A DNA stretch of 64,000 nucleotides from Candidatus Magasanikiibacteriota bacterium (GCA_018661775.1 JABJHO010000014.1:42305-106304), one strand, 5' to 3'. Counted from the first letter of the stretch, positions 24,782 to 53,105 are shown. The notes: generated by a model from the letters alone, not told the origin. Numbers and translations are program-made.

Positions 24782-25918
24782 ATGGGGGTTTTTCAAAAAC
24801 AGGAGGCATATCTAGGGGTAGATCTTGGTGCACATGGCATCAAGGTGGTTGAACTTAAAAAAGTAAAAAATAGGCCACACATCTGGACATATGGTTTGTT
24901 AAATAAAAAACTAGATGTGCATGCGCCGCAAAGAAAACACAAAAAAGCTGTGAAGTATTTTGATTATGAACAAAAAGATACCAATCAAGAGGATGAAAAG
25001 GGTGTGGATAAGGTGTTTCAGGATGAGCGTGTTGAAGTCTATGCATCTCTACTAAAGAAGGTGCTAAAAGATGCACGAGTAACAGCCAATCGTGCAACTG
25101 CAAGTCTTCCTGTTTCTGAGATATTTCATACGCTTATTACACTGCCAAAAGTAGACAAGAAGGATTTAAAACACCATGTACACGCAAAAGTAAAAAAACT
25201 CCTTCCACTTCCTATAGATGAGATGCAAATTGTGTTCCAAATATTTCCTGACCCAGAAGAAAAACGAGATTATTTACAAATACTTGTCACGGCGGCACCA
25301 AAATCTCTTGTCATACTGTATAGTAAAATTTTTCAAAAAGCTGGAATTATTCTTGATGAGCTTGAGACGGAAGCATTTGCATTGGAGCGGGCCTTGGTTG
25401 GGCGAGATAGCGCGACTTCTTTGGTTATAGACATGGGGAGTGAAAGATCAAATTTCTTTGTCATAAAAAATAGCCTTCCCATTACACATAGAAGTATTAA
25501 AATAGGAGGAAATAACTTTGATGCGCATCTTGCGCAAGTGTTGGGAGTGTCACAGGATCACGCAGAACAGATAAAAATTGATTTAGCGAGTGGTACTGTG
25601 GATAGGCGTATTGAAAGTTCCTTGTTTAGTGCGCTGCTTGAACCAGTGGTGAAAGAGATACAATATAGTATTGATGTATACAAAAGTCAGGTCCGAGATA
25701 ATTCGACAGATCGTGGGATAGAAAAGATTATATTAACCGGTGGGGTAGCGTTTTTTCCACCATTTATGGATTACTTAAAACAAAAATTTCCATTAACAGT
25801 GTTTATTGGTGACCCATGGGCTCGCGTGGTGTATCAACAGGGTCTAAAGAATGTATTAGATAATTTGGGCCCAAGAATGGCAGTAAGTGTGGGGTTGGCA
25901 ATGCGTAACCTTGTGTAA
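24782..25918 (+). CDS. pilM: Type IV pilus assembly protein PilM (actin-like ATPase fold)
   Basis: 378 aa. LGVDLGAHGIKVVEL, DMGSERSNFF and ILTGGVAFFP. Confidence 0.7.
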   Translation: MGVFQKQEAYLGVDLGAHGIKVVELKKVKNRPHIWTYGLLNKKLDVHAPQRKHKKAVKYFDYEQKDTNQEDEKGVDKVFQDERVEVYASLLKKVLKDARVTANRATASLPVSEIFHTLITLPKVDKKDLKHHVHAKVKKLLPLPIDEMQIVFQIFPDPEEKRDYLQILVTAAPKSLVILYSKIFQKAGIILDELETEAFALERALVGRDSATSLVIDMGSERSNFFVIKNSLPITHRSIKIGGNNFDAHLAQVLGVSQDHAEQIKIDLASGTVDRRIESSLFSALLEPVVKEIQYSIDVYKSQVRDNSTDRGIEKIILTGGVAFFPPFMDYLKQKFPLTVFIGDPWARVVYQQGLKNVLDNLGPRMAVSVGLAMRNLV

Positions 25919-25964
25919 TTTTTGTAATAGTATATACTATATATATAAATGCTAACTTTGTTTT

Positions 25965-26345
25965 ATGGTAGAAAAAAGTATACATATATTGCTTATAGAA
26001 GATGATACGTTTTTAGCAAACATTTACAAAACAAAATTTGAAATGGAAGGTTTTGTGGTAGATGTGGCAGAAAATGGTGAACTAGGACTAAAGGAGGTTC
26101 AAAAAAGGCAGCCAGACCTTGTGTTGCTTGATATTTTACTACCAAAGATGGATGGGTTTACGGTTTTACAACACATGAAAGAAGATGCTGAGTTAAAAAA
26201 CATTCCTGTTATTCTCTTAACCAATCTTGGTCAAAAAGATGATGTAGAAAAAGGTTTGAAGCTTGGTGCTGCAGATTATCTGATTAAAGCACATTTCAAA
26301 CCATCAGAAACAGTTGATAAGGTAAAAAGTGTTTTAGGTATATAG
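25965..26345 (+). CDS. Single-domain response regulator (CheY-like receiver)
   Basis: 126 aa. ILLIEDD, DLVLLDILLPKMDGF and the ADYLIKA lysine. Confidence 0.85.
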   Translation: MVEKSIHILLIEDDTFLANIYKTKFEMEGFVVDVAENGELGLKEVQKRQPDLVLLDILLPKMDGFTVLQHMKEDAELKNIPVILLTNLGQKDDVEKGLKLGAADYLIKAHFKPSETVDKVKSVLGI

Positions 26346-26396
26346 TTACTGTTCTTTTTTGCATATGAATTACACAAGGAGGGGGGTGAGTATGAC

Positions 26397-26825
26397 ATGA
26401 ATAAAAAAGGTTTTACACTTATTGAATTGCTCGTTGTCGTTGCAATTATTGGACTACTTTCAACACTTGCGGTTGTAGCTCTTTCTACAGCAAGAGAGAA
26501 GACGAGAGATTCAAAGCGTTTATCTGATTTGAAAAATATCCAAACAGCCCTAGAATTACATTATACAGGAAGCAACCAGTATCCAGTTGCACAAGTTGCC
26601 GTTGATCTAGGGGCAGGAGATTTTGCCTGTTTAAATGGTGATGGTTTTGGTGCAGTAGGGTGTGCTACTCCGTTCTTAGAAGTAGTTCCATCTGGCCCAA
26701 ATGCGGCTGAGGTATACACATATACATCAGATGACGGTACCGCTTTTGCTGTTGTTGCAACACTAGAAGGAGAGCTTGGTGGTTTGAGTGGAGATGTTAC
26801 AGCATCACAGTCGGGTATCAATTAA
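26397..26825 (+). CDS. Type IV pilin / pseudopilin
   Basis: Prepilin leader MNKKG followed by FTLIELLVVVAIIGLL (class III signal). Strong SD aaggagg upstream. Confidence 0.85.
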   Translation: MNKKGFTLIELLVVVAIIGLLSTLAVVALSTAREKTRDSKRLSDLKNIQTALELHYTGSNQYPVAQVAVDLGAGDFACLNGDGFGAVGCATPFLEVVPSGPNAAEVYTYTSDDGTAFAVVATLEGELGGLSGDVTASQSGIN

Positions 26826-26840
26826 TTTTTTTGAAAAAAT

Positions 26841-26877
26841 AAAAAACAAACACGAGATATTTGTGTTTGTTTTTTTA
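26841..26877. terminator. Bidirectional terminator between the pilin gene and the convergent repeat-protein gene
   Basis: 8-bp stem acaaacac/gtgtttgt (26846-26853 / 26863-26870) flanked by an A-run and a T-run. Confidence 0.7.
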
Positions 26878-26915
26878 ATTCATGCTGAAGTGTGGATATT
26901 TGTGTATAGCTTATT

Positions 26916-28082
26916 TTATTCTTTATACACTATATTTAGGTGTGAATATTTTTGCTCCATAATGACCAAATCTTCTTCTGAAAATTTATTTCTATCAATC
27001 AGTACTTTGCCCGTAACAATATCAGGTAGAACTAGCCCATCTGTTGTCGTGAGACCCAAGAGTATGAGATCGCCATCGATTGTTTTTGGAAAAGTAACAC
27101 CTTCTGCTGATTTAAGTTCCCATGTTACTATACTTCCTATGATGGTTTCAGGTAATAGTATGTTGGTGGCTTTCTCTAGGTTGAAAAGATGTATACTTCC
27201 TATTAAGGTTTTTGGAAATTGCACAGTATGTGCTGTCTTGAGTCGATCCATAGAAATGAGCCCATTAACACCGTCTTGTGGAAATACTACATTATGAACT
27301 GACTCAAGACCAATTAAGTTTAACTTACCATGTACTGTTTTGGGAAATTCTAGTCCATCTATTTCAGTGAGTGAAGACATACAAAGACTACCATTAACAG
27401 TTTCGGGTAGTACTAACTTTTCTGTGGAAAGGAGGTAGAATAGCAGAAGATCGCCATGTATTATTTTTGGGAGCGTAAGTGTTTTTGCAGATGTTACTTG
27501 TAGTTGAAGGTCACCATTTACTATTTCTGGACATGTTATCCTTTTGTCTTCATCAATGCGTTCGGGACTAAGGTTGCCATAGTGGTATTTTATTTTACCT
27601 TTCAAAATGGTATTTTCTAAAAAGTTTTTATTTTTGGTTTCTGTGTAAGAGCTTATCTGATCCTCTGTGAAACCAGTAAGTCGAGATATATCCTCTTTAA
27701 AATTATGGATGTCTATAGGAAAATTACGATATGTAGTATCAAGACTAAACGGACCTTTGCCTTCTTTAAAACCCGTCACACCCCCGCTGTTGTTGTATAT
27801 TATGTGTAAATCATTTATTGGTGTGTCTTTAGTAATTCTATCACCATTAATTTTTTTCTTTATTTCTTGAATACGTTGTGTTTTTTTTGCCACTTTCTCC
27901 CATCTTTTTAGTTTAAGTCGTAAGAATGAAGATGTATTAAATACCTGCTCTATGTTTCTTTTTCGTTCTCGTATATTTTCGATATCACCACCTGATTCAA
28001 TAAGAGTCTTAAATTCTTCTAATTTTAGGTTTTGCATTGCTTTTAGCATTTTTTTTATGTCTCTACACTCTTCTTGAGCCAT
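26916..28082 (-). CDS. Repeat protein: coiled-coil N-terminus plus nine ~21-aa LRR-like repeats
   Basis: 388 aa. The Pro of the (L/F)P(K/E)T(I/V)xGxLxL unit recurs at residues 185, 205, 226, 247, 268, 290, 311, 332 and 353. No signal peptide. Confidence 0.7.
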   Translation of the reverse strand: MAQEECRDIKKMLKAMQNLKLEEFKTLIESGGDIENIRERKRNIEQVFNTSSFLRLKLKRWEKVAKKTQRIQEIKKKINGDRITKDTPINDLHIIYNNSGGVTGFKEGKGPFSLDTTYRNFPIDIHNFKEDISRLTGFTEDQISSYTETKNKNFLENTILKGKIKYHYGNLSPERIDEDKRITCPEIVNGDLQLQVTSAKTLTLPKIIHGDLLLFYLLSTEKLVLPETVNGSLCMSSLTEIDGLEFPKTVHGKLNLIGLESVHNVVFPQDGVNGLISMDRLKTAHTVQFPKTLIGSIHLFNLEKATNILLPETIIGSIVTWELKSAEGVTFPKTIDGDLILLGLTTTDGLVLPDIVTGKVLIDRNKFSEEDLVIMEQKYSHLNIVYKE

Positions 28083-28209
28083 ATATTTTTTGTTATATTA
28101 CAATAGTATATCATTTTTTTTGATCTATTCACACTCTGTTTCTTTGTGGCCATGTTTATTTCTTTTTCTCTATTTTCCTGCTATACTCGATATATACTAC
28201 TCATAATTA

Positions 28210-31013
<2,804 letters not shown>

Positions 31014-34239: not shown

Positions 34240-34268
34240 TTGACAGTTACATGATATTTTGTTATTGT
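34240..34268 (+). promoter_or_regulatory. Sigma-70-type promoter for the tRNA-Ser pair
   Basis: TTGACA, 17-nt spacer, TATTGT, ending 12 nt before the first tRNA. Confidence 0.5.
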
Positions 34269-34280
34269 GTGACTACTTAT

Positions 34281-34370
34281 GGAGAGATGGCAGAGTGGTC
34301 GAATGCGCAGCCTTGGAAAGGCTGTGTACGAGCAATCGTACCGCGGGTTCGAATCCCGCTCTCTCCGCCA
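34281..34370 (+). tRNA. tRNA-Ser (anticodon GGA), CCA encoded
   Basis: Manual cloverleaf: acceptor GGAGAGA/TCTCTCC, anticodon stem CAGCC/GGCTG with loop TTGGAAA, long variable arm, T-arm GCGGG-TTCGAAT-CCCGC, discriminator G then CCA. Confidence 0.9.
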
Positions 34371-34378
34371 ATATAAAA

Positions 34379-34466
34379 GGAGAGGTGCCGGAGTGGTTGA
34401 ACGGGGCGCTCTCGAAAAGCGTTGTCCGGTTTTCTCGGACCGCGGGTTCGAATCCCGCCCTCTCCG
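34379..34466 (+). tRNA. tRNA-Ser (anticodon CGA), CCA not encoded
   Basis: Acceptor GGAGAGG/CCTCTCC, anticodon stem GCGCT/AGCGT with loop CTCGAAA, long variable arm, identical T-arm. Followed by cga, not cca. Confidence 0.9.
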
Positions 34467-34555
34467 CGAATATACAAGAGGTTATGCGGTTTCGCTTCGT
34501 TTCACCCAAATTTTCACACACAGTGGTAAGTCCTTTTTAATTTTTTTTGGGAAAT

Positions 34556-34592
34556 AAAAAACCGCCTCAACCTTTTTTGGTATGTTGGCGGT
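34556..34592 (-). terminator. Possible terminator of the minus-strand GC-rich cassette
   Basis: On the minus strand: accgcc, 20-nt loop, ggcggt, then ttttt. The large loop keeps confidence low. Confidence 0.3.
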
Positions 34593-34627
34593 AAGTAGTT
34601 GGTTTGCTTAGTTCTAGCCTAGCAAAC

Positions 34628-34825
34628 TTATATGGCGGTAATAGTAATGTCGGCTGACCCTCCAAAATTCTTGGCGGTTTCTGCCGCTACACCTGAAAGA
34701 ACGATGGCAGTGTACCAGAAATCTGGGTAGCCACCGCAGGCCTTTTTGACCTTGTTGCGGTTGGTGTTCCACTCGATTTCGGACTTACTGCTTTTCATCA
34801 GCGCCACAACTTCACGTTGGGTCAC
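34628..34825 (-). CDS. Small protein of unknown function (65 aa)
   Basis: The GTG start overlaps the upstream stop (GTGA). GC-richer than its surroundings. No recognisable family. Confidence 0.5.
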   Translation of the reverse strand: MTQREVVALMKSSKSEIEWNTNRNKVKKACGGYPDFWYTAIVLSGVAAETAKNFGGSADITITAI

Positions 34826-35385
34826 GGTATGCTCCTTTTGACCGCTAAGAAGTGAATGTCTTTTCTGTCAAACGCATCGCTTTCCCAGGTCTCACTCAGG
34901 CTTAGTACCTGCTTACCTTCAGACTTTTGGAGAATCGGGACATTTATGTGTCCGCAATGAGCCTTCCAGTCAGATCCAAGGGCTACCACGTAACTCTCTT
35001 CTAGGTTTGGATACATAACACTTAGTGCCAGTAACTCTTCGAGAGTTGCGGGTCTGAAACCTTGGTCTTCGAGCTGCGCTTTTGGTGGTTTAGAAAAAGG
35101 GGTCATTCTCAGACGAACCATTTCGACCTTAACCTGTTCCGCGTTACAGTCGTTTTCACGGACACCGCGCACCTCATAGGCGTTGTCATCGCTCAAGATT
35201 CCACTGTAGGCAAAACTTACCCAGTCATATTTTCCTGCTTCAATCATGGTCTTGTGTTTGCAGTTGACCATCACTGAGTAATTTGGGTTTGGTTGCTGGT
35301 TATAATTAGAGGTTGGTTCCTCTGGTGCCGAACAACAAGACAGTGTCAAAATGACACAAATAAAGATAAAAGCTTTCTTTTCCAT
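34822..35385 (-). CDS. Lipoprotein of unknown function (187 aa)
   Basis: Signal peptide with lipobox MEKKAFIFICVILTLSC. GC-richer codon usage than neighbouring genes. Confidence 0.6.
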   Translation of the reverse strand: MEKKAFIFICVILTLSCCSAPEEPTSNYNQQPNPNYSVMVNCKHKTMIEAGKYDWVSFAYSGILSDDNAYEVRGVRENDCNAEQVKVEMVRLRMTPFSKPPKAQLEDQGFRPATLEELLALSVMYPNLEESYVVALGSDWKAHCGHINVPILQKSEGKQVLSLSETWESDAFDRKDIHFLAVKRSIP

Positions 35386-38026: not shown

Positions 38027-38521
38027 TTAGGTGTGTGGGTTGTACTTGCCCAAAGGCGCGCGCATTTCTGCTGCTCTATAGAGCGTCACACTGACTTCAA
38101 GCATCTCTTGAAGCGAATCGACCACATAGAGGTTGGAGAGTCGAAGCTTCTTGAGATGCTCTTTGACTAGTGCTCGTGCGCGCAAGCTCTCCTTTCTGGC
38201 AACCGCGTCTTCGAGGTTATCATCAAGTTCTTGTTCGATCATGATGACAAAATCTCGACGATCTTCTAGCCTAATAGCGTTTAGCACGCTAAAGCCAGTT
38301 TCAGCGAGAGAGCCTGTGCCATAGGTTTCTCCTGTTATCGGGAAGAGAACGACTTGGTCGTTCGCTAGGTGCTCCGCTTCGATCACGGCGTCTTCAGGTT
38401 TCCAGTCCTCAACCTGTGGGTTAAAGAACTGAATACCTTCTTGGTTGTAGTGACTCATGAATGGAGTGCGCCATTGAGAGTTTCCACAGGTTCCAAAAAG
38501 ACCAATATATAACGTACCCAT
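38027..38521 (-). CDS. Nucleoside 2-deoxyribosyltransferase-like superfamily protein
   Basis: 164 aa. LYIGLFGTCGNSQWR near the N-terminus and ITGETYGTGSLAETGF (GT..E.G block) fit the NDT-like Rossmannoid fold as I remember it. Strong SD aaggagg. GC-richer than neighbours. Confidence 0.45.
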   Translation of the reverse strand: MGTLYIGLFGTCGNSQWRTPFMSHYNQEGIQFFNPQVEDWKPEDAVIEAEHLANDQVVLFPITGETYGTGSLAETGFSVLNAIRLEDRRDFVIMIEQELDDNLEDAVARKESLRARALVKEHLKKLRLSNLYVVDSLQEMLEVSVTLYRAAEMRAPLGKYNPHT

Positions 38522-41358: not shown

Positions 41359-41403
41359 TACAGAAGTACGGTTGCGCTTATCGTCTATTTTCTTAATATC
41401 CTT

Positions 41404-41432
41404 ACAAAAAACCCCATCACATTGTGACGGGG
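41404..41432 (-). terminator. Terminator of the minus-strand membrane-protein pair
   Basis: On the minus strand: ccccgtcac-aat-gtgatgggg followed by tttttt. Confidence 0.65.
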
Positions 41433-41458
41433 GATAGGAAAAAAAGAGCGATAATTAA

Positions 41459-41722
41459 TTATTCGCCAGCGGCGGCGACTCCAAAGAGTGTCACTGAGGC
41501 CATTGCTCCTGCGAATAGTATGGGTAGTAGTGTGATAGTTGGTGCACCTGCCGCCCCAGCTAGTGTTACCAAGACGGTCGCTATGCCTGTGGCGCCGCCT
41601 GTAGTGGTTGCCAGCGAAAGTGCTTTTTGGCGCCTATGGTGAAGCGGCCCAAAGGCTGTGCGTAGAAGAGATCCAAGGAGAATGGGAGCAAATAAAGCGC
41701 CCAAGATAATAAGGAATTGCAT
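41459..41722 (-). CDS. Gly/Ala-rich small membrane protein (87 aa)
   Basis: Predicted TM helices. The start lies 3 nt after the upstream stop, with aggaagagg as SD inside the upstream gene. GC-richer than neighbours. Confidence 0.55.
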   Translation of the reverse strand: MQFLIILGALFAPILLGSLLRTAFGPLHHRRQKALSLATTTGGATGIATVLVTLAGAAGAPTITLLPILFAGAMASVTLFGVAAAGE

Positions 41723-41725
41723 GTG

Positions 41726-42010
41726 TCACACCCTCTTCCTTTCTAGAAACTTCAGTGTTAAGGCTCCGCCGGCAAACATGCCTAGTCCGGCAGCAAACAG
41801 ATAGGGTATTTCTGGGCCTTGGTACTCTGGGAGTGCCCCAGCTGCCTCTAATGCTCCGCAAAAGATGAGCATGGCACCACCAAGAGTTATCCATGCGCTC
41901 ATAAGAGCACCAAGAATCTTGGAAGTTCCAGTTATGGTAGCTGCTACCATCATTGAAAAAAGTGCTGACACCAAAAAGATGCCAACTAAACTGAATATCG
42001 TTGTTACCAT
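41726..42010 (-). CDS. Gly/Ala-rich small membrane protein (94 aa)
   Basis: Three predicted TM helices and a basic C-terminus LERKRV. First gene of a two-gene cassette. Confidence 0.55.
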   Translation of the reverse strand: MVTTIFSLVGIFLVSALFSMMVAATITGTSKILGALMSAWITLGGAMLIFCGALEAAGALPEYQGPEIPYLFAAGLGMFAGGALTLKFLERKRV

Positions 42011-42185
42011 GTTTTACCTCCATGGGTTTTTAAGGTGTACTCAAAACATATCATAAAATAAGTATTTTGTCAAGTAAGTATGTGTATATTTTATCTTTAA
42101 ATTACGTATATGTAAATGCATACGAATCATATTTTCTATACATAATCCTTGCATGTTTTGTCTATTTTTGCTAAAGTATTCTGTT

Positions 42186-43007
42186 ATGAAACAAAAAAAT
42201 TTCTCAAAAGCACCGATACAACGCTCTCTCCTACGACGTATTCTTGGGCGAGTGTATTTTTGGTGTCGTCGTATATGGTATTGGCACATGAGTGGTCGTG
42301 CATTTGCAACCTCTCGTTCTACAAAGCTTCTTCCGCATAGAGTATTTTCACATAAGACTGTATTGTTGCGAAAATTAAAGGATGTGGATATGTGGATGCA
42401 ACATAATAAGGTTGTTAATCTTAATATTGCTACACAAAAAATAGACGGTCTTGTAATTCGCCCCGGAGAAACCTTTTCGTTTTGGCGGCAGGTTGGTAAC
42501 ACAACCACAAGAAAAGGGTATGTGTCTGGTATGGAACTGTTTAATGGTACTGTACGAAGTGGTGTTGGTGGTGGTTTGTGTCAGTTAAGTAATTTAGTAT
42601 ACTGGATGACCCTTCATACGCCACTTGATGTGGTGGAGCGGTGGCGACACGGGTATGACGTGTTTCCTGATGTGCACCGTACCCAACCTTTTGGGAGTGG
42701 TGCAACCTGCTCGTATCCGAATATTGATTTACAAATACAAAATAACACACCCCATACATTTCAATTATCTACTTGTCTTTCTGACACTCATCTTGTTGGA
42801 AGCTGGCACTGTTCTCGTCACATAAAAGAGCAGTATGAGATTTATGAAAAAGAACATAGTATTGCTCACGAGGTTTGGGGAGGGTATACACGGAGTAATA
42901 CACTGTATCGTAAGGTGGTTGACGTCGACACAAAGCAATTACTCAATGATTATTTTGTCGTAGAAAATAACGCAATTATGATGTATACGCCGTTTCTCAA
43001 AGAGTAA
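42186..43007 (+). CDS. VanW-family protein
   Basis: GVGGGLCQLSNLVYW and ATCSYPNIDLQ. ATG 42186 is preferred over the track start 42153. Confidence 0.7.
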   Translation: MKQKNFSKAPIQRSLLRRILGRVYFWCRRIWYWHMSGRAFATSRSTKLLPHRVFSHKTVLLRKLKDVDMWMQHNKVVNLNIATQKIDGLVIRPGETFSFWRQVGNTTTRKGYVSGMELFNGTVRSGVGGGLCQLSNLVYWMTLHTPLDVVERWRHGYDVFPDVHRTQPFGSGATCSYPNIDLQIQNNTPHTFQLSTCLSDTHLVGSWHCSRHIKEQYEIYEKEHSIAHEVWGGYTRSNTLYRKVVDVDTKQLLNDYFVVENNAIMMYTPFLKE

Positions 43008-43012
43008 CAAAA

Positions 43013-43042
43013 AACACCTTTCTAGGCTTTTGGAAAGGTGTT
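43013..43042. terminator. Hairpin between convergent VanW and phosphatidyltransferase genes
   Basis: 10-bp stem aacacctttc / gaaaggtgtt with a 10-nt loop. Confidence 0.6.
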
Positions 43043-43063
43043 GTGTAAAAAAAGAGCACGAAA

Positions 43064-43636
43064 TTATACTTGCCGCACTTGGTGCGTTAAGCTGAATATA
43101 GCAAATAATAGACTTATTCCCAAAATACTGTTTGCAGTTACCACGCTTACTTCCAGGCTTATGCCACAAAAACTCTTTAGCAGAGGAATGAGCATGAGCA
43201 CACTTATGCCGATTTTTTCGATATTCGTTTTTAGTTTTCCAGATATTGACGCCATTATATTAGGTGTTTCACCCATTTTTTTTCCGTATACTATTTTATA
43301 TACACGAAGCATGGTGAGTGCCAGGCCAATTGATATAATAGGTACACTGATTATCGCGTAGACTTCTGACCAAAAATATAGTAAAAAACTGATGGTAAAT
43401 ACTTTGTCTGCAAGAGGGTCGAGGAATGCTCCGGTGTGCGAACTTTGCCCAAACACTCTTGCAGCCTTGCCGTCAAAATAATCCATTGACCATGCAAAAC
43501 CAAAAAGTATGGAGGAGTGTAGATGCATTTCTTTTTCTTGAAAATGCAAAATGAATGGAATGCATAGCATGCCAAAAAGGGTAAGGGTATTAGGGAGCCA
43601 GCCTTTTATGGCGTCCTTGTATATAAAAGTAAACAA
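43064..43636 (-). CDS. CDP-alcohol phosphatidyltransferase (PgsA-like)
   Basis: DGKAARVFGQSSHTGAFLDPLADK matches the D-G-x2-A-R-x8-G-x3-D-x3-D motif. Confidence 0.75.
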   Translation of the reverse strand: MFTFIYKDAIKGWLPNTLTLFGMLCIPFILHFQEKEMHLHSSILFGFAWSMDYFDGKAARVFGQSSHTGAFLDPLADKVFTISFLLYFWSEVYAIISVPIISIGLALTMLRVYKIVYGKKMGETPNIMASISGKLKTNIEKIGISVLMLIPLLKSFCGISLEVSVVTANSILGISLLFAIFSLTHQVRQV

Positions 43637-43721
43637 TACAAATCCTTTCTGGTAAAAGTTGTACGTTATTTAGACGAACTTTTTATTTTAAGACTATTAC
43701 AGTATAATAAAACCACACTGT

Positions 43722-43749
43722 TTGTCAATATTAAAAAATTTTGTATAAT
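43722..43749 (+). promoter_or_regulatory. Sigma-70-type promoter at the left edge of the pentose-phosphate module
   Basis: TTGTCA, 16-nt spacer, TATAAT. Confidence 0.45.
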
Positions 43750-43786
43750 GTGGGTATATTTACTGGTTCATCTTTTATGAATAAAG

Positions 43787-44202
43787 CCTCAGACACTTTT
43801 TCTATTGGTGGTAGTAAGGTTTTGAAGAAAAGTTCAGAAGACTTAGTTACAGTTATTGGTGCGGGGGTTACTTTGTACGAAGCGCTTAAAGCTTATGATG
43901 CGCTACAAGAGAATAAAATTAATATTAGAGTAATTGATTTATATAGTATTAAACCTCTTGATCAAAGCACTTTAAATAAAGCGGCCAAAGAAACTAAGGC
44001 TGTAATTGTGGCTGAAGATCATTTTGAGGCTGGTGGAATAGGGGAGGCGGTAAAGTCAGCTTTATCTACTTCATCTACTCCTATTTATTCACTCGCCGTT
44101 AAGAAAATGACTAAGAGTGGTAGTCCAGAGCAATTATTAAAATATGAAAATATTGATAGCACAGCTATTGTTAGAAAAGTTAAGCAAATATTAAAAAAAT
44201 AA
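43787..44202 (+). pseudogene. Transketolase C-terminal domain only (truncated remnant or stand-alone fragment)
   Basis: 138 aa. FSIGGSKVLKKSSEDLVTVIGAGVTLYEALKA..IRVIDLYSIKPLD..AVIVAEDHFEAGGIGEAV is the TK_C domain. The thiamine-PP and Pyr domains are missing, and an in-frame stop lies at 43732-43734. Confidence 0.7.
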
Positions 44203-44206
44203 ACTT

Positions 44207-44881
44207 ATGAAAATTTTTATTGATTCTGGATCAATTGACGAAATTAAAAAAGCAGCTGCCTCTGGAGTGATTGATGGCGTGACAACTAATCCTAGTTTAA
44301 TCGCCAAGGAGGGTAAAGATTTTAAAACTGTTATTAAAACTATTGGTGAGTTGTTCGATACCGAGCATAGTGCTCATTGTGAATGTCCGGTTAGTGCTGA
44401 AGTGGTTAGTATTGCTGCCAAAGAAATGATCGTTGAAGCCAAAAAGATTGCCAAGATTCATAAAAAGGTTGTGGTTAAGATTCCGTTAATCCCGGAAGGA
44501 ATCAAGGCAGTAAAAGAATTGTCTGGTTTAGGGATTAAAACTAACGTTACTTTGTGTTTTACGGCCGCCCAGGCATTGCTTGCGGCTAAGGCTGGTGCGA
44601 CCTATGTCAGTCCTTTTATTGGACGGTTAAATGATATTGATCAACGTGGTTTAGATTTAATTAGAGAGATAAAACAAATTTTTACTAATTATGATATCAA
44701 AACGCAAATTTTAGCAGCTAGTATTAGATCACCTCGGCAAGTTGTTGAAATAGCACTGATTGGAGCAGACGTTGTTACAATACCTTATAAAGTTTTTGAA
44801 AAATTATTTAACCATCCGCTTACAGACAAGGGACTAAAACAGTTTTTGGCAGATTGGGATCAATATAAAAAAACACAATAA
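44207..44881 (+). CDS. tal: Transaldolase / fructose-6-phosphate aldolase (short type)
   Basis: 224 aa. [21 protein letters not shown], Schiff-base lysine in VVVKIP, and SPFIGR. Confidence 0.9.
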
Positions 44882-44884
44882 ATT

Positions 44885-47254
44885 ATGAATACATTAAAAA
44901 AAGCTAACATCCCAACAGTTATTGTCGTCTTTGGTGCGACAGGAGATTTGATGGAGAAAAAAATTGCTCCATCTCTTTTGCATTTGTACAAAAATGGTAA
45001 GTTGCCAACTCAGTTTAAGATTGTCGGCGTTGCCAGGAAAAGTAATAGCGATGGTCAGTTTCAGAAATTAGTTGGGGATCATTTAAAAAAACATTCTAAG
45101 CAACATCCATCAAAAGAAAAGTTTAAAAAGTTTTTGGATTATTTTACTTATCAATCAGGCCAGTTTCAAGAACCCAAGACTTATAGCGAGCTTAGTAAAA
45201 AACTTAAGCAGATAGATGATGAGTGGGGAGTATGTACTAATAAGCTTTTTTATCTAGCAGTCCCGCCAAAGTTTTATCAAACTATATTTAATAATTTATC
45301 AGCTTCTGGACTGACTAAGCCTTGTAGTGAGGAAGAGGGTTGGACTAGAGTATTAGTTGAAAAGCCATTTGGCAGTGATTTAAAAACAGCCAAAGAATTA
45401 GAAGAGGTGTTGGGTAAGCTCTTTAGAGAGGAACAGATTTTTAGAATTGATCATTACTTGGCTAAAGAAATGCTGCAAAATATTTTGGCTGTTAGGTTTT
45501 CTAATAATTTATTTGAACAAACTTTTAATAATCGGTTTATTGATAGCATTGAATTATACTTACATGAAAAGAAAGGGGCCGAAGGTCGCGGTAGTTTTTA
45601 TGATAGCGTTGGAACCCTAAAAGATGTTGGCCAAAATCATTTGTTGCAGATGTTGGCTCTTGTCACTATGGATATGCCACAAAGTTATAATGCTAAACAT
45701 ATTCGTGACAAGAGGTATGAATTAATGAAACATTTAATTCCATTGAAAAAATCCGAGATGAGCACCAATACTTTTAGAGCTCAATACGAAGGATATACTC
45801 AGGTAGAGGGCGTTAATGCAAAATCAAAAACAGAAACATTTTTTAAACTGCAGTGCTTCTTAAATCATCCAAGGTGGCGAGATGTACCTATTACTATTGA
45901 AAGTGGTAAGGGTATGGCTGCACCTAAAAAAGGTATTGCTTTGAATTTAAAACACACTATGCCATGTTTGTGCCCTAAAGGCTCAGAGCATTATCGTAAT
46001 AAGATAATTCTTACTATGGAACCAGAAGAGGGTATTACAATTGAATTCTGGGCCAAGAAACCGGGATTTCAGTGGCAGATAGAAAAGAAAGAGTTGAAGT
46101 CTTTTTATCGTAAGAATGCCAAGCAGGCTCAGTATACAGAAGAGTATGAAAAACTTTTATTCGATTGTATTGTCGGGGATCAAACTTTATTTGTTAGCAC
46201 TAAAGAGGTCCTTGCAATGTGGAAGTTTATTGATCCAATTGTTAAAGCCTGGGAAAGTAAAATAGTGTCACTAGAAAAATATAAAAAAGGATCGAAGACT
46301 ATTTCTACTTCTGTAAAGTTTAGTTCAACTAAAGTTAAAGATGCAGGACAAATGCCTTTAGAAATTGGAATTGTTGGTCTTGGTAAAATGGGTGGTGGTC
46401 TTGCTAGGCAGTTATTAGAAAAAGGCTGGAAGATTCATGGTTATAACAGGAGCCCAGAGGAGACACGTAAATTAAAAAAAGATGGATTAATTCCAGAATT
46501 TAGCTTAGAGGATATGGTAAAGAATCTACCATCACCAAAGATTGTTTGGCTAATGGTTCCTTCTGGTAAGCCAGTTGATGAAAATATTAATAAGCTAGCA
46601 AAGCTTTTGGGTAAAGGGGATTATATTATTGATGGGGGTAATTCTTTTTTCCAAAATACTGTCAAACGATCTCGTAAAGTTACGGCTAAGAAAATTAATT
46701 TTATGGATTGTGGTGTGTCTGGAGGTCCCGAGGGAGCGCGCCACGGGGCTTGTTTGATGATTGGTGGTAAAAAAGTTGATTATGATTTCTTAAAGCCTTT
46801 GTATTCTGATTTGGCTATTCATCAAGGCGAAGAATTTTTCCCTGGTTATGGAGCTGGCCATTTTGTAAAGATGGTTCATAATGGTATTGAATATGGCATG
46901 ATGCAGTCTATTGCTGAAGGATTTGCGATTATGAGAAAATCAAAATATAAATTACACTTGCGTAAAATTGCAGAGGTTTATAACCATGGTAGTGTAATTG
47001 AATCTAGTTTGATCAATTGGATGGGAAATGCTTTTGCCTTATTTGGCGATGATTTAAAAGGTGTGTCTGGTAGAGCCTCACATAGTGGCGAAGGGCTTTG
47101 GACAACACAGGTAGCGCATTCTTTGGGAATATCCGATAAGGTTATTCACGAGTCACTAAAAGCTAGAGAGAGAAGCCAGAAAAAACCAAGTTACCAAGGT
47201 AAGATTATTCAGGCTTTAAGAAATCAGTTTGGCGGACATAATTTAAAAAAATAA
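44885..47254 (+). CDS. Fused glucose-6-phosphate dehydrogenase / 6-phosphogluconate dehydrogenase (decarboxylating, short form)
   Basis: 789 aa single ORF. G6PD blocks are GATGDLMEKK, EKPFG and RIDHYLAKE. From about residue 485 come IGIVGLGKMGGGLA, IDGGNS, GVSGGPEGARHG and FVKMVHNGIEYGMMQ (Gnd-like). Confidence 0.85.
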   Translation: MNTLKKANIPTVIVVFGATGDLMEKKIAPSLLHLYKNGKLPTQFKIVGVARKSNSDGQFQKLVGDHLKKHSKQHPSKEKFKKFLDYFTYQSGQFQEPKTYSELSKKLKQIDDEWGVCTNKLFYLAVPPKFYQTIFNNLSASGLTKPCSEEEGWTRVLVEKPFGSDLKTAKELEEVLGKLFREEQIFRIDHYLAKEMLQNILAVRFSNNLFEQTFNNRFIDSIELYLHEKKGAEGRGSFYDSVGTLKDVGQNHLLQMLALVTMDMPQSYNAKHIRDKRYELMKHLIPLKKSEMSTNTFRAQYEGYTQVEGVNAKSKTETFFKLQCFLNHPRWRDVPITIESGKGMAAPKKGIALNLKHTMPCLCPKGSEHYRNKIILTMEPEEGITIEFWAKKPGFQWQIEKKELKSFYRKNAKQAQYTEEYEKLLFDCIVGDQTLFVSTKEVLAMWKFIDPIVKAWESKIVSLEKYKKGSKTISTSVKFSSTKVKDAGQMPLEIGIVGLGKMGGGLARQLLEKGWKIHGYNRSPEETRKLKKDGLIPEFSLEDMVKNLPSPKIVWLMVPSGKPVDENINKLAKLLGKGDYIIDGGNSFFQNTVKRSRKVTAKKINFMDCGVSGGPEGARHGACLMIGGKKVDYDFLKPLYSDLAIHQGEEFFPGYGAGHFVKMVHNGIEYGMMQSIAEGFAIMRKSKYKLHLRKIAEVYNHGSVIESSLINWMGNAFALFGDDLKGVSGRASHSGEGLWTTQVAHSLGISDKVIHESLKARERSQKKPSYQGKIIQALRNQFGGHNLKK

Positions 47255-47256
47255 CT

Positions 47257-48096
47257 ATGTATTTTTCAACAGCTGATGAAATGGAAAAACTTGATGAGCT
47301 TGCCGTAGAACATGGTCTTGAGATTAGACAGATGATGGAACTGGCTGGTTGGCATATGGTAGAAGTTTTTAATAAACTTAGTATTGGTTTATCCGACCAA
47401 ATTGTTATTGTTGTTGGTAAGGGTAATAAAGGTGGCGATGGGTTAAGCGCTGCTAGGCATTTAGTTAACCATGGCTATAAAAACATATCGATCATTTTAG
47501 TTTCTAAAGATATTAAGCCAGACTCACAGCATCACTTAGACTTGTTAGTCAAGATGGATATGCCAATTATGGTTTATTCAGAAAATCAAGACTTGGCAAA
47601 AGAAAAAATAGATTCAGCCGATATTATTATGGATTCATTGATTGGCTATCATTTACAAGGAGAACCTCGTGGAGACTTTGCTGAGTTAATTGAAATAATA
47701 AATAATGCATCAGGAAAAGTAATCTCTTATGATCTGCCCTCTGGGGTAGATGCAACCACAGGGGAGTGTCAGAAGGTTTGTATTAAGGCAGATGCAACTT
47801 TAACTTTAGCTATGCCAAAGAAAATTTTTAATACAAATTCGGGCAAGGAATCCTCTGGACAAGTGTTTGCTCTAGACATTGGTGTTCCAGAATTTTTATA
47901 CAACAAAATAGCATCAGGATCTAGGCCAGAATCAAACCATAGTGTGCGAAAAAATAGCGCCAATGCATCCGCTTCATTTAGGTTAATGTCTGTGTATTTT
48001 TCCACAGTCTCTAGTTGTGTGTCTTGGAACCAGTTTCCGCACATTGTTTCTTTCAGGTCTGACTTCATCCATGCAAATTTTTTATCTTTCACATAA
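47257..48096 (+). CDS. nnrE: NAD(P)H-hydrate epimerase (YjeF_N / NnrE); 3' end reads into the antisense of the neighbouring gene
   Basis: GKGNKGGDGLSAARHL, DSLIGYHLQG, YDLPSGVDATTG and ALDIGVP. Family similarity ends near 47915, and the remaining ~60 codons have no family resemblance. Confidence 0.75.
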   Translation: MYFSTADEMEKLDELAVEHGLEIRQMMELAGWHMVEVFNKLSIGLSDQIVIVVGKGNKGGDGLSAARHLVNHGYKNISIILVSKDIKPDSQHHLDLLVKMDMPIMVYSENQDLAKEKIDSADIIMDSLIGYHLQGEPRGDFAELIEIINNASGKVISYDLPSGVDATTGECQKVCIKADATLTLAMPKKIFNTNSGKESSGQVFALDIGVPEFLYNKIASGSRPESNHSVRKNSANASASFRLMSVYFSTVSSCVSWNQFPHIVSFRSDFIHANFLSFT

Positions 48097-48436
48097 TAGA
48101 TGCCAATTGGCACACAGGCTACCAATGCAACAGAATCATCAATGAGTGTTGGGCAGACAAAATCAATTAATACGTCTTCTTTATCAAGCAGTGCAATAGG
48201 ATTTGGGGCGGGTGTGTCTTGTAGTGCTATGACCTCGTTTTCCCAAAACAGGGGCGTAAACGTGTCCCAAGTAGCATTTAGTATGTCTTTACTCTGCTTG
48301 TCTAAAGTGTTTTTTTTGGTATATCATCTAAAAGAAACAGAAGATCTGTAGGGTCATAAAAATTAAGATCCCCAAACTCTTCTTCAAATTTTTTTGTGAG
48401 TATAGATAATGCTTCTTCCCGGTTTATTTTTGCCAT
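47769..48436 (-). pseudogene. Unknown gene interrupted at an A8 run, with a non-native 3' end
   Basis: ATG 48436 opens a 44-codon frame ending at TAG 48302-48304. The frame one nucleotide back is open from just before the A8 run (48310-48317) down to 47769. Confidence 0.55.
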
Positions 48437-48667
48437 ATTTTTGTACGCTATGTTTTAGTAAGTGAATATGAGTAATATATTGCTTGTAGGCAGTATATCA
48501 TAAAAATAGTATTTTTGTGTACATGGGTTGGATATAATACCTCAAGACATGGGTAAATATGTAATCAACAAAAAAGGGTATTATGTAAAAATACAAAGAA
48601 TTGCATGTTTTGGTTGAATTGTTTCTCGAATTACCCTATACTTGTGGTATATATCATATATTTCTTT

Positions 48668-49636
48668 ATGCCTATATATATTATTATCATCTCTCTTATC
48701 CTTCTTTCGGGTCTTTTTTCTGGCCTTACTTTAGGCTTACTTGGATTGGACGTGGCAGAACTAAAACGAAAAATGTCTTTAGGAAACAAGGACGCGGAAA
48801 AAGTGTATCATATCAGAAAGAGGGGAAATTTATTGCTTTGCACGTTATTGCTCGGCAATGTGTGGGTAAATTCCACATTAGCTATTTTTTTGGGATCTAT
48901 GGCTAGTGGTGCCATGGCTGGTATTATAGCCACTGGCCTTATTGTCATTTTTGGTGAAATTATTCCACAAGCTGCGTTTTCTCGGTATGCATTGCAGGTT
49001 GGTGCAAAAACAGCTGGTTTGGTGCGTTTTTTTATCATCATACTTTTTCCTGTGTGTTGGCCAATAGCATGGGTTCTCGACAAAGTGTTGGGTAGGGAAA
49101 TGCCTCAGGTGTATTCAAAAAAAGAATTAATAAAAATTATTGAAGAGCATGAAGATGCCCAAGAAAGTGGTATTGATGCCGACGAAGAACGTATCGTTAC
49201 TGGCGCATTGACGTATTCAGAAAAAATAGTTGAAGATGTCATGACTCCAAGAAAAGGTGTGTATGCACTTGATAGTGCAACTTCTATCACAGAAGAGATA
49301 ATTGAAGAGATTAAGATAAAAGGGTTTACACGTATTCCGGTGTACACGGGTTCTGTAGATCAGACACTTGGTGTGTTGTATGTAAAAGATTTGTTGAATA
49401 TTCCTCTTGGTACGGCAATACAAGATGTGTTTAAAAAAGAGCGCATGTTGCAGGTGAGTAGAGAAATGAAACTCGACACTTTGCTTGCACAGTTTATTCA
49501 GACACAAATTCATTTGGCAGTAGTAAAGGATATCAGAAACCGACTCGAAGGGGTTATTTCTTTGGAAGATATTATAGAAGTGATTTTGAATCAAGATATT
49601 AACGATGAAACAGATGTTTCAGAGGTGATCTCTTAG
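48668..49636 (+). CDS. CNNM/CorB-type DUF21 + CBS-pair membrane protein (putative Mg2+/Co2+ efflux)
   Basis: SGLFSGLTLGLLGLD, FGEIIPQA and a CBS pair (DVMTPR.., GFTRIPVY). No C-terminal CorC_HlyC domain. Confidence 0.8.
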   Translation: MPIYIIIISLILLSGLFSGLTLGLLGLDVAELKRKMSLGNKDAEKVYHIRKRGNLLLCTLLLGNVWVNSTLAIFLGSMASGAMAGIIATGLIVIFGEIIPQAAFSRYALQVGAKTAGLVRFFIIILFPVCWPIAWVLDKVLGREMPQVYSKKELIKIIEEHEDAQESGIDADEERIVTGALTYSEKIVEDVMTPRKGVYALDSATSITEEIIEEIKIKGFTRIPVYTGSVDQTLGVLYVKDLLNIPLGTAIQDVFKKERMLQVSREMKLDTLLAQFIQTQIHLAVVKDIRNRLEGVISLEDIIEVILNQDINDETDVSEVIS

Positions 49637-49673: not shown

Positions 49674-50066
49674 ATGACTTTTGTATATCCGTATGTGCTG
49701 ACCATAATATGCATGGGACTCCTTGATTTTTTATGGTTTTCTTTCTCGTACCCTTTGTTGTATAAAAAGGGGATAGGTCATCTTATGGCCGATAAAGTTG
49801 CCATGTTTCCGGCGGCGTTATTTTATATTGTATTTGCTTTTGGACTGTATGTGTTTGTCCTAAAACCTGGATTTGCACAGCAGTTTTCAGTTACGCGCGT
49901 TTTGCTCCTTGGTATGCTTTTGGGTTTTTTGGCCTATGCAACGTATAATTTTACTAATCAAGCAACACTCAAAGATTGGCCTGTGCTGGTCACGATTGTA
50001 GATAGTGTCTGGGGGGCGGCGGTGTCTGGTGTGACCGCAACTCTTGTATATGTGTTGACACGATAG
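49674..50066 (+). CDS. Small polytopic membrane protein (DUF2177-like)
   Basis: 130 aa with four hydrophobic segments. The family call is from memory of the LDF.WF / Y.F.N.AT pattern only. Confidence 0.45.
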   Translation: MTFVYPYVLTIICMGLLDFLWFSFSYPLLYKKGIGHLMADKVAMFPAALFYIVFAFGLYVFVLKPGFAQQFSVTRVLLLGMLLGFLAYATYNFTNQATLKDWPVLVTIVDSVWGAAVSGVTATLVYVLTR

Positions 50067-51734: not shown

Positions 51735-52166
51735 ATGTTTGTTGGCGAATATTCTCACAGTTTGGATACAAAAGGCCGTTTAGCCATACCTAAATTATTT
51801 AGGAGTGATCTTTTGGATGGTTTAGTGATAACACGAGGCATAGATGATTGTTTGTTTTTATACACAAAAACAGCATGGTCATCTGTGTCTGATTATATAT
51901 CACAACTTCCATTTTCAAAAGCACACGTTCGGGGTTTTGCCCGACTTATGTTGGCTGGCGCAACAAACCTTACTCTAGATAAACAGGGTAGGGTTTTGTT
52001 GCCCGAATATTTACGCATATATGCTCAGTTAGAAAAAGAGGTGGTGGTCGCAGGTTTGTGCAATCGCATTGAGATATGGAATAAAAAAGATTGGGAAGTT
52101 GCCTTGGACAGTGTGTTAACTGATAAACACAAAATAGCCGAGCAACTTGATACGTTGGGTTTATAA
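51735..52166 (+). CDS. mraZ: Transcriptional regulator MraZ
   Basis: MFVGEYSHSLDTKGRLAIP and a second half with LDKQGRVLLP. The internal ATG is preferred over the track start 51642. Confidence 0.85.
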   Translation: MFVGEYSHSLDTKGRLAIPKLFRSDLLDGLVITRGIDDCLFLYTKTAWSSVSDYISQLPFSKAHVRGFARLMLAGATNLTLDKQGRVLLPEYLRIYAQLEKEVVVAGLCNRIEIWNKKDWEVALDSVLTDKHKIAEQLDTLGL

Positions 52167-52178
52167 TTTTTTTACATT

Positions 52179-53105
52179 ATGAAACATGTTCCAGTTTTGT
52201 TAGATGAAGTGTTGGAAGTATTTGATTTGGACGCCGGACTGTCTGTATTGGATTGCACTCTTGGAGACGCTGGCCATGCCGAGGCAATGCTAGAAAGAAT
52301 TTCTCCTGGCGGTACGCTTGTTGGTATTGATGCTGATCCTGAGGCTGTTGTTCGTGCAAAGCATTTTCTTGAATCGTTTGGTGAGCAGGCTGTTGTTGTT
52401 CGAGATAATTTTTTACACATTGACACCATTATTTCTGGGCTCGGTTTTACGTGTGTTGATCGCATTCTCTTTGACCTTGGGTGGTCCAGTCCACAGTTTG
52501 CAGAAAGGGGGCGCGGGTTTAGTTTTTTACAATCAGATGAACCACTAGACATGCGTTTTTCTTCTGACGTGGGGAACCTTGAGAAACGACCAAACAAAAC
52601 AGCAGGGGAACTTGTAAACAGTGCATCACCTGATGTTCTGGTGCGTATATTTCGTGAATATGGGGAAGAAAAATTGGCCCATGAAATAGCAGGAGCTATT
52701 GTTGTACAAAGGACAAAAGAAGCTATAACTACCGTAAAACAGCTTGTGGAAATTATTTTAGAGGTGTATAGAAAAAAAACACATACCACAAAAGAGGTTC
52801 CATGGATAGGTGGGCTTCATCCGGCAACACGTGTATTTCAGGCATTGCGTATTGCGGTAAACAAAGAGTTAGAAGTGCTTGAGGGGGTGTTACCAAAAGC
52901 ATTGTCGCTACTTTGTCCTGGAGGAAGACTTGCGGTGATTTCTTTTCACTCTTTGGAGGATCGTTTGGTGAAACATTTTTTTAAATCACAAATTGGAAAA
53001 GGGTATCGGGTGCTCACAAAAAAACCCATCGTACCTTCGTCAGAAGAGTGTAAAGTAAATGTGCGCGCTCGATCAGCAAAACTTCGTGTAATTGAAAAAA
53101 TATGA
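52179..53105 (+). CDS. rsmH: 16S rRNA (cytosine1402-N4)-methyltransferase
   Basis: HVPVLLDEV, DCTLGDAGH, FDLGWSSPQF and SFHSLEDR. Confidence 0.95.
   Translation: MKHVPVLLDEVLEVFDLDAGLSVLDCTLGDAGHAEAMLERISPGGTLVGIDADPEAVVRAKHFLESFGEQAVVVRDNFLHIDTIISGLGFTCVDRILFDLGWSSPQFAERGRGFSFLQSDEPLDMRFSSDVGNLEKRPNKTAGELVNSASPDVLVRIFREYGEEKLAHEIAGAIVVQRTKEAITTVKQLVEIILEVYRKKTHTTKEVPWIGGLHPATRVFQALRIAVNKELEVLEGVLPKALSLLCPGGRLAVISFHSLEDRLVKHFFKSQIGKGYRVLTKKPIVPSSEECKVNVRARSAKLRVIEKI

Follow-up and report, generated by a model that had tools for sequence, protein, structure and literature searches.

We describe a block of pentose-phosphate genes in a stretch of 64,000 nucleotides from Candidatus Magasanikiibacteriota bacterium (GCA_018661775.1 JABJHO010000014.1:42305-106304), hereafter the window. 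The block occupies positions 43777-47919 (~4.15 kb) and comprises four co-directional genes: a truncated transketolase gene (tkt'), a transaldolase gene (tal), a gene encoding a fused glucose-6-phosphate dehydrogenase (G6PD) and 6-phosphogluconate dehydrogenase (6PGDH), hereafter the fusion, and a truncated NAD(P)HX epimerase gene (nnrE'). We put at roughly 85% the probability that the block entered a Candidatus Magasanikbacteria genome by recent lateral transfer, in which illegitimate recombination replaced resident DNA in place and captured a resident promoter. The composition of the block is foreign, it takes the place of other DNA at a syntenic locus, its two joins cut three genes, and the resident promoter in front of it was kept. 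Lateral acquisition is favored because synteny with a relative's scaffold (L010), composition, phylogeny, and the complete operons of the nearest relatives agree. An earlier note on this DNA had proposed that the block was acquired as a unit, with genes truncated at both junctions, and this proposal held, also when composition was scored with an independent model. Of the checks that the note had suggested, GC and tetranucleotide profiles, the taxonomy of relatives and synteny supported acquisition.

The resident locus and its two joins

At its right edge, the block adjoins the remnant of a convergent minus-strand gene, which we call hyp237. One of the intact homologues of this gene, P0122, was located on the Tara Oceans scaffold L010 as well as seven shorter contigs (L011-L017). 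Scaffold L010 is collinear with the window over rsmH, mraZ, GDPD, RRM, CNNM, hyp237 and a pgsA-like gene, at 64-89% amino-acid identity (tblastx); in all, eight flanking genes are collinear between the two. Between the pgsA-like gene and hyp237, which is complete there, L010 carries a NUDIX gene and a metallophosphoesterase gene (Metallophos) and no pentose-phosphate genes, and L011-L017 support this arrangement. The block is absent from the syntenic locus of these relatives and therefore stands in place of ~1.35 kb of resident DNA. It is the window that has the truncated forms: elsewhere, hyp237 is intact at 236-237 amino acids (aa), NnrE at 232-244 aa and transketolase at 609-612 aa.

The source of the window is a metagenome-assembled genome and its composition changes abruptly at both edges of the block, as might be seen in a chimeric mis-join, the alternative that the earlier note had named. 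The exact fusion protein was found on nine contigs. Four same-species contigs (L001-L004) cover both joins without a gap and are 99.92-99.97% identical to the window over 6.8-18 kb. They come from two metagenome-assembled genomes at NCBI and from two ENA assemblies that differ in assembler and sample. In the two JGI metagenomes, the right join is crossed by contig L103 (100% identity), and another contig shows the same gene order. Independent assemblies thus reproduce both joins, gapless and at 99.9-100% identity, which refutes a chimera. In addition, both flanks are syntenic with one single contig of a relative, which is not expected of a random mis-join. We give an assembly artefact practically no credence.

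The left join lies next to a pair of promoters. The 140-nt intergenic region between the pgsA-like gene and tkt' holds two sigma-70-type promoters, back to back with a common -35 region, which are the best two such matches in 43000-48700. On the plus strand, the -35 element TTGTCA (43722-43727) is followed, after a spacer of 16 nt, by the -10 element TATAAT (43744-43749). On the minus strand, the -35 element is TTGACA (43728 to 43723) and the -10 element TATACT (43706 to 43701). Each promoter matches 11 of the 12 consensus positions. This divergent promoter region (43690-43759) is resident and conserved in L010: the intergenic alignment between the window and L010 reaches ~43759, taking in AAGACTnTTACAGTATAnTAAA, TGTTTGTCAATAT and AAATTTTGTATAAT. 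The plus-strand -10 element ends 22 nt before the ATG of the NUDIX gene in L010 and 27 nt before an ATG at 43777 in the window. Homology to the tkt genes of contigs L007, L008 and L100, which carry the closest complete operons (see below), begins at the ATG-AAT-AAA codons at 43777, where the window reads ATG AAT AAA GCC TCA GAC and L008 reads CTG TAT AAG CCA ACA GAT. Since homology to L010 ends at ~43759 and homology to tkt begins at 43777, the left crossover falls within 43760-43776, a junction interval of 17 nt that matches neither L010 nor the tkt genes of the relatives.

The earlier note had started the transketolase open reading frame (ORF) at TTG 43741, which gives 153 aa (43741-44202). 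This TTG falls inside the promoter. The real start of tkt' is probably ATG 43777, giving 141 aa, and two public annotations make the same call. The promoter-like TTGTCA-16-TATAAT and the missing transketolase domains that the note had described at this edge both stood; only the start was corrected. As the locus is now arranged, the resident sigma-70-type promoter would transcribe tkt'-tal-fusion-nnrE' as one unit.

At the right edge, DNA homology to the hyp237 genes of L018 (95%) and of L010 and L011 (83%) starts exactly at 47920, and the sequence before this position is unrelated. The alignments place a sharp right join at 47919|47920. The earlier note had set the breakpoint at ~47915, a few nucleotides too early, and had been right that the nnrE stop was lost and that the frame reads on through the antisense of the convergent gene. 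At the crossover, the SRP codons of nnrE' (47920-47928) lie on host-derived DNA and still match the NnrE family; the DNA of the relatives reads S-T-P or S-S-P there. Possibly, a short microhomology, TCTAG.CCAG, was present at the right crossover, as the host antisense and the NnrE family both encode S-x-P.

The hyp237 remnant (47920-48436, minus strand) is a resident pseudogene, both truncated at its 3' end and frameshifted. Its frame starts at ATG 48436, changes at a run of eight adenines (A8, 48310-48317) and then continues without a stop to 47769, across the end of the nnrE frame. Sixty-five of 236 codons were lost at the 3' end. Intact homologues are P0121 (236 aa, 90% identity) and P0122 (237 aa, 76% identity), and the Pfam search with the conceptual hyp237 protein found no family. 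The frameshift is a -1 change, with A8 in the window versus nine bases in the relatives (A6GAA or A9); the A8 run recurs unchanged in every same-species contig that covers it (L001-L004), and the DNA alignment of the remnant with its relatives from 47920 has one gap only. Gene callers place two ORFs here, 47769-48125 (minus strand, 118 aa) and 48100-48351 (plus strand, 83 aa), the second of which is called in several public assemblies. Neither is an independent gene; both are pieces or shadow frames of this pseudogene.

Origin of the block

The closest relatives of the fusion protein are P0002 (73% identity, contig L007), P0003 (69%, L008), P0004 (63%, L100) and P0005 (60%, L009). All four contigs carry the order rpiB-rpe-tkt-[tal]-fusion, with spacing as tight as in the window and a transketolase of 609-612 aa that holds all three domains. 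A neighbour-joining tree of the fusion (483 columns, 200 bootstraps), in which one Magasanikbacteria-labelled fusion was included, grouped the window with P0002 and P0003 at 99.5% bootstrap support and, with P0004 and P0005 added, at 99%. The Magasanikbacteria-labelled fusion joined the block fusion in 0 of 200 bootstraps. The host affiliation was read from SecA: the SecA of the window is identical to a protein named Candidatus Magasanikbacteria at NCBI, and its named relatives (65-71% identity) are nearly all Magasanikbacteria, the rest being broadly labelled Patescibacteria or Parcubacteria. Thus, in the neighbour-joining analysis, the fusion groups with the operon-bearing contigs and is incongruent with the host lineage given by SecA.

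The block resembles the operons of L007, L008, L100 and L009 in its tkt-tal-fusion order, its gaps of a few nucleotides and its protein identity of 60-76%. It differs from them in lacking rpiB, rpe and the first ~470 tkt codons, in having nnrE downstream, and in standing in a Magasanikbacteria chromosome behind a resident promoter. Given the operon in these relatives and the L008-like signature described next, what the window contains is an operon truncated at its 5' end, of a type characteristic of another, lower-GC lineage of the Candidate Phyla Radiation (CPR). Probably, the donor was a CPR bacterium of lower GC content and a relative of the organisms behind L007 and L008.

The earlier note had judged by eye, with nothing computed, that the block is AT-rich, with more tta and fewer tgtg, and the counts bear this impression out. 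The GC content of the block is 0.357, versus a mean of 0.391 over all 4.2-kb segments (z = -2.1), which makes it the lowest-GC 4.2-kb stretch of the 64 kb; the segments with GC as low as the block all start at 42701-44701 and overlap it. The tetranucleotide distance of the block to the whole window is 0.0354, versus a mean of 0.0192 (standard deviation (sd) 0.0034). This distance is the largest in the 64 kb, ~4.8 sd above the mean, and peaks at segment starts 43501-43751. TGTG occurs 2.4 times per kb inside the block versus 7.6 outside, and TTA 36 versus 19 times per kb. The tetranucleotide profile of the block correlates at 0.970 with L008, whose GC content is 0.347, and at 0.829 with its own host.

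An independent likelihood model was trained on L008 versus host DNA outside 42-49.5 kb, so that the block was never seen in training. Its scores per kb were +109 for tkt', +85 for tal, +56 for the fusion and +58 for nnrE. On the host side, the pgsA-like gene scored -75, the VanW gene -169, the hyp237 remnant -55 and the CNNM gene -78; host 600-bp segments had a mean of -93.5 per kb (sd 39.7). All four block genes, including the two that were cut, are donor-like in this model and therefore have a common foreign signature. The switch of oligonucleotide signature coincides with both joins.

If the block had been inherited vertically, its low GC content and codon use would have to come from expression level or amino-acid composition. 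Several other host genes do have a GC content of 0.33-0.36, and the GC z-score of the block is only -2.1. However, the tetranucleotide distance peaks exactly on the block, different genes occupy the locus in relatives, and three genes are cut at the block boundaries. We consider vertical inheritance highly improbable.

A second way to dispense with transfer is to make the operon ancestral at this locus. The window would then derive from internal deletions, one from the NUDIX gene through the 5' part of tkt and another across the 3' ends of nnrE and hyp237, and L010 would independently have lost the whole operon. The truncations are indeed deletion-like, NUDIX genes adjoin the pentose-phosphate operon in L008, L100 and L009, and no mobile-element signature was found at the block. 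Yet this history takes at least three independent events, versus one or two for a replacement, and leaves unexplained the sharp switch of the donor-like signature exactly at the two joins. The fusion has no Magasanikbacteria affinity in the tree. The NUDIX gene of L010 is not orthologous to the operon-linked NUDIX genes (29% over 85 aa to one of them), and the NUDIX-Metallophos pair of L010 lies 5 nt from hyp237, with no scar of a lost operon. An ancestral operon is improbable on this evidence, if less so than vertical inheritance with a skewed composition.

Several points weigh against lateral transfer as we propose it. Taken by itself, the difference in GC content is modest (z = -2.1). The tree was built by neighbour joining on 483 columns and has a star-like backbone. 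The closest fusion is only 73% identical to that of the block, and nnrE is missing downstream of all four nearest operons. The co-arrival of nnrE with the other genes rests on composition, 2-nt spacing and the analogy with another contig (L113, see below). The contig L018, from the relative nearest to the host (95% DNA identity), spans just 989 bp, with an intact hyp237 and nothing beyond it but 175 bp of downstream non-coding DNA that had no match among the sequences compared. Since L018 is too short to show the locus beyond hyp237, the more distant L010 (83%) had to stand in for the ancestral state. Transcription from the captured promoter and the enzyme activities were deduced from the sequence.

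Under lateral transfer, the incoming DNA would be a piece of a pentose-phosphate operon, whose order in the donor was probably rpiB-rpe-tkt-tal-(G6PD-6PGDH)-nnrE. It would have been integrated by illegitimate recombination, with no mobile element taking part. The left crossover would have joined the 5'-untranslated region of the resident NUDIX gene to the start of the transketolase C-terminal domain of the donor. The right crossover would have taken place 9-15 codons before the nnrE stop in the donor and 65 codons before the stop of the convergent hyp237 in the host. In this way, ~1.35 kb of resident DNA, namely the NUDIX gene, the metallophosphoesterase gene and the 3' end of hyp237, would have been replaced by ~4.15 kb of foreign DNA. 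The evidence is compatible with one event for both joins, as well as with a larger insert that was trimmed later. The event appears recent, because a relative with 95% identity keeps an intact hyp237 and the foreign composition is not ameliorated.

Gene replacement through illegitimate recombination of foreign DNA, with promoter capture, is a general bacterial mechanism. The block is like such cases in having no integrase, transposase or repeats, in having breakpoints inside genes, and in being inserted directly behind a resident promoter. It is unlike them in that no homologous anchor segment was detected. Pfam and annotation gave no integrase or transposase gene within 42-49 kb, a search for flanking repeats or target-site duplications around the block found none, and the tRNAs of the window lie only at 34281-34467, none beside the block. 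With classical genomic islands, the block shares an atypical composition and its absence from the locus of a relative. It differs from mobile islands in having no tRNA target, integrase or direct repeats, and in being an operon fragment of only 4.15 kb.

Genes carried by the block

The earlier note had described a tight co-directional module of a transketolase C-domain, tal, the fusion and nnrE. Pfam content agrees with this description, and the measured gaps between the four ORFs are 4, 3 and 2 nt.

The first gene, tkt' (43777-44202, plus strand, 141 aa), is a non-catalytic remnant of transketolase. The ORF counted from TTG 43741 contains Transketolase_C only (residues 26-143; Pfam) with no Transket_pyr match, and upstream of it lie the promoter and the divergent gene, with no transketolase sequence. 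It therefore has neither the thiamine-diphosphate-binding N domain nor the pyrimidine-binding domain that a functional transketolase needs. At 141-153 aa, the ORF is also not the C-terminal subunit of a split transketolase, which would hold the Pyr and C-terminal domains in ~300 aa. A naturally split transketolase was rejected accordingly, as no Pyr domain is present and the relatives have single full-length genes. Rejected too was an alternative code, with UGA read as sense, as the reason for the short ORF: long ORFs under table 11 occur throughout the window, and the DNA upstream is not transketolase. The identity of tkt' to the last ~140 residues of the transketolases of L007, L008, L100 and L009 is 73, 73, 70 and 61%, respectively. 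The C-terminal domains of these four are 59-75% identical among themselves, so that tkt' is in line with them and shows no visible decay, in keeping with a recent event. Its sole remaining role may be that of a leader ORF.

The second gene, tal (44207-44881, plus strand, 224 aa), encodes an intact short-type transaldolase/FSA. It covers positions 1-283 of the 285 in the TAL_FSA profile (E = 7.7e-62), and is thus full length, and it is 72-76% identical to the tal genes of L007 and L100. The fusion (44885-47254, plus strand, 789 aa) is likewise intact, with the domains G6PD_N, G6PD_C, NAD_binding_2 and 6PGD. Its homologues of 768-826 aa cover 97-100% of the query, and on its domains it is predicted to be a full-length fusion. 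As many as 7887 proteins matched it at E <= 1e-20; of the 120 best matches, those with a named source represent many CPR lineages, Roizman-, Harrison-, Portnoy-, Levy- and Taylorbacteria among them, and are 52-57% identical to the fusion. Matches that were contiguous and full length, with 48-49% identity, were also observed in contigs labelled Actinomycetes, Coriobacteriia and Slackia. A literature search for a natural G6PD-6PGDH fusion, made with five variants of the name, found no description, only papers on engineered co-expression.

With these genes, the host would gain a transaldolase and a two-step oxidative branch, predicted to convert glucose-6-phosphate to ribulose-5-phosphate with the formation of two NAD(P)H. 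The earlier note had called an oxidative pentose-phosphate branch uncommon in CPR genomes. Its distribution in CPR is sparse and highly patchy, with low phylogenetic depth, which fits that statement, but the branch is widely distributed as well (Jaffe et al. 2020, PMC7304191), and the fused enzyme itself is widespread, given the number of its homologues and lineages. Both loss and lateral transfer have been discussed as causes of such patchy patterns (Jaffe et al. 2020, PMC7304191).

The last gene, nnrE' (ORF 47257-48096, 279 aa), consists of a native part (47257-47919, plus strand, residues 1-221) and a non-native tail (47920-48096, plus strand) of 57-58 codons and a stop, which is the antisense of the truncated hyp237. 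The YjeF_N domain is complete, at residues 25-189 (profile positions 3-168 of 169). Alignments with NnrE homologues of 232-244 aa are confined to residues 1-225/229, and these homologues terminate 9-15 residues past the conserved SRP motif; bifunctional homologues of 511-528 aa align to residues up to 212-222. In nnrE', 55 antisense-derived codons run on past SRP, in place of the native C-terminus and stop. Residues 230-279 had no homologue in a library of 1.8 billion protein sequences. In the AlphaFold model, the mean predicted local distance difference test score (pLDDT) of 10-residue blocks is 80-97 up to residue 220, while residues 232-279 have a pLDDT <50 and no secondary structure. Thus nnrE' lost its last 9-15 codons and its stop, kept the whole catalytic domain and ends in an unstructured tail.

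In none of 80 named genomes with relatives of the fusion (<=52% identity), which also supplied named CPR sequences for the tree, was nnrE found downstream of it. Among contigs drawn from NnrE relatives (55-63% identical), nnrE follows the fusion in L113, rpiB-rpe-tkt-pfk-fba in L108, and an amylase gene and a ROK kinase gene in L119. A 3'-terminal nnrE is thus a recurrent feature of sugar operons. Because of this recurrent position, together with its donor-like composition, nnrE likely arrived on the same fragment as the other block genes. The earlier note had also proposed that the block couples NADPH production with NAD(P)H repair. The coupling is plausible, as the fusion-nnrE order recurs in L113, but unproven: the window has no NnrD, the dehydratase (YjeF_C / carbohydrate kinase) that is the partner of NnrE in repair, and the C-terminus of NnrE is non-native.

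Two further observations concern this gene and its position. In L008, a gene with a PNPOx-like (pyridoxamine-phosphate-oxidase) fold follows the fusion directly (10184-10648), where the window has YjeF_N. Besides NAD(P)HX repair, YjeF_N proteins have been linked to vitamin B6 metabolism. In addition, contig L019 (ERZ508549, 649 bp, 0.88x coverage) is 100% identical to window positions 47226-47707 and continues with 167 bp of unrelated AT-rich sequence. It encodes an apparent 181-aa NnrE variant (P0123), which would give a different nnrE breakpoint; we set this breakpoint aside, since it comes from a single 649-bp contig at 0.88x. L019 is probably a low-coverage assembly artefact or, less probably, a second rearrangement inside nnrE in another population.

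Surroundings of the block and its meaning

Both flanks of the block are host DNA. On the left, the intact pgsA-like gene (43064-43636, minus strand) encodes a CDP-alcohol phosphatidyltransferase (Pfam CDP-OH_P_transf) with 78% identity to L010 7343-7783 (tblastx). On the right, a resident CNNM/CBS gene identified with Pfam (48605-49636, plus strand) opens the syntenic host block CNNM-RRM-GDPD-mraZ-rsmH. Among the annotated ORFs of the 64-kb window, none was found to be rpiB, rpe, a full tkt or nnrD.

Some features further from the block were recorded as well. A type IV pilus cluster (24782-28989), with PilM, a response regulator, a pilin with an N-terminal methylation motif and a prepilin peptidase, lies 15-19 kb upstream of the block. 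Such a cluster could bear on DNA uptake; nothing was found that ties it directly to the block. Between the CNNM and RRM genes, the window has a DUF2177 gene (49674-50066, GC 0.42), which is absent from the same interval of L010 (CNNM end 4222, RRM end 4028) and is a second difference in gene content nearby. The same-species contig L002 differs from the window at 10 positions in ~300 bp at 52145-52451, the 5' part of rsmH, versus 4 differences in the 18 kb outside this tract, which looks like a short import through recombination between strains. A SecD homologue (15818-17854) has matches to PpiC-type rotamases, with the best stretch at residues 253-360, between the first P1 subdomain and the P1 head, an unusual insertion for SecD. 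Finally, three short patches are GC-rich, at 0.45-0.52 versus 0.39 for the window. The first (34259-35385) contains a pair of tRNA-Ser genes (34281-34370 and 34379-34467), along with an ORF of 187 aa without a Pfam family; the second (38027-38521) is a nucleoside 2-deoxyribosyltransferase-like gene; the third (41400-42023) has overlapping ORFs on both strands with no family.

The block is a well-resolved case of an already known kind of event. A wider proposal is that naked operon fragments spread central-metabolic modules among CPR bacteria by a general route free of mobile elements, entering behind resident promoters by recombination at the level of microhomology, with the leftovers co-opted. 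Here, tkt' would act as a leader that couples translation into tal, and nnrE would have gained a de novo C-terminal extension from antisense sequence. We find this generalization doubtful and offer it as speculation.

For metabolic reconstruction, the locus calls for caution. The 141-aa 'transketolase' is a remnant that should be left out of any count of functional enzymes; the NnrE of 279 aa is chimeric, and the neighbouring ORFs are pseudogene pieces or shadows.

The locus is a concrete instance of a gain of the kind that could underlie the patchiness of the oxidative pentose-phosphate branch in CPR (Jaffe et al. 2020, PMC7304191). Unlike the published pattern, which is statistical and consists of presence and absence on a tree, breakpoints, displaced genes and promoter are resolved here. 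Thus, the locus makes a statistical claim about CPR concrete, down to the reused promoter and the collateral damage, and provides a base-pair-level example of the spread of a patchily distributed metabolic trait.

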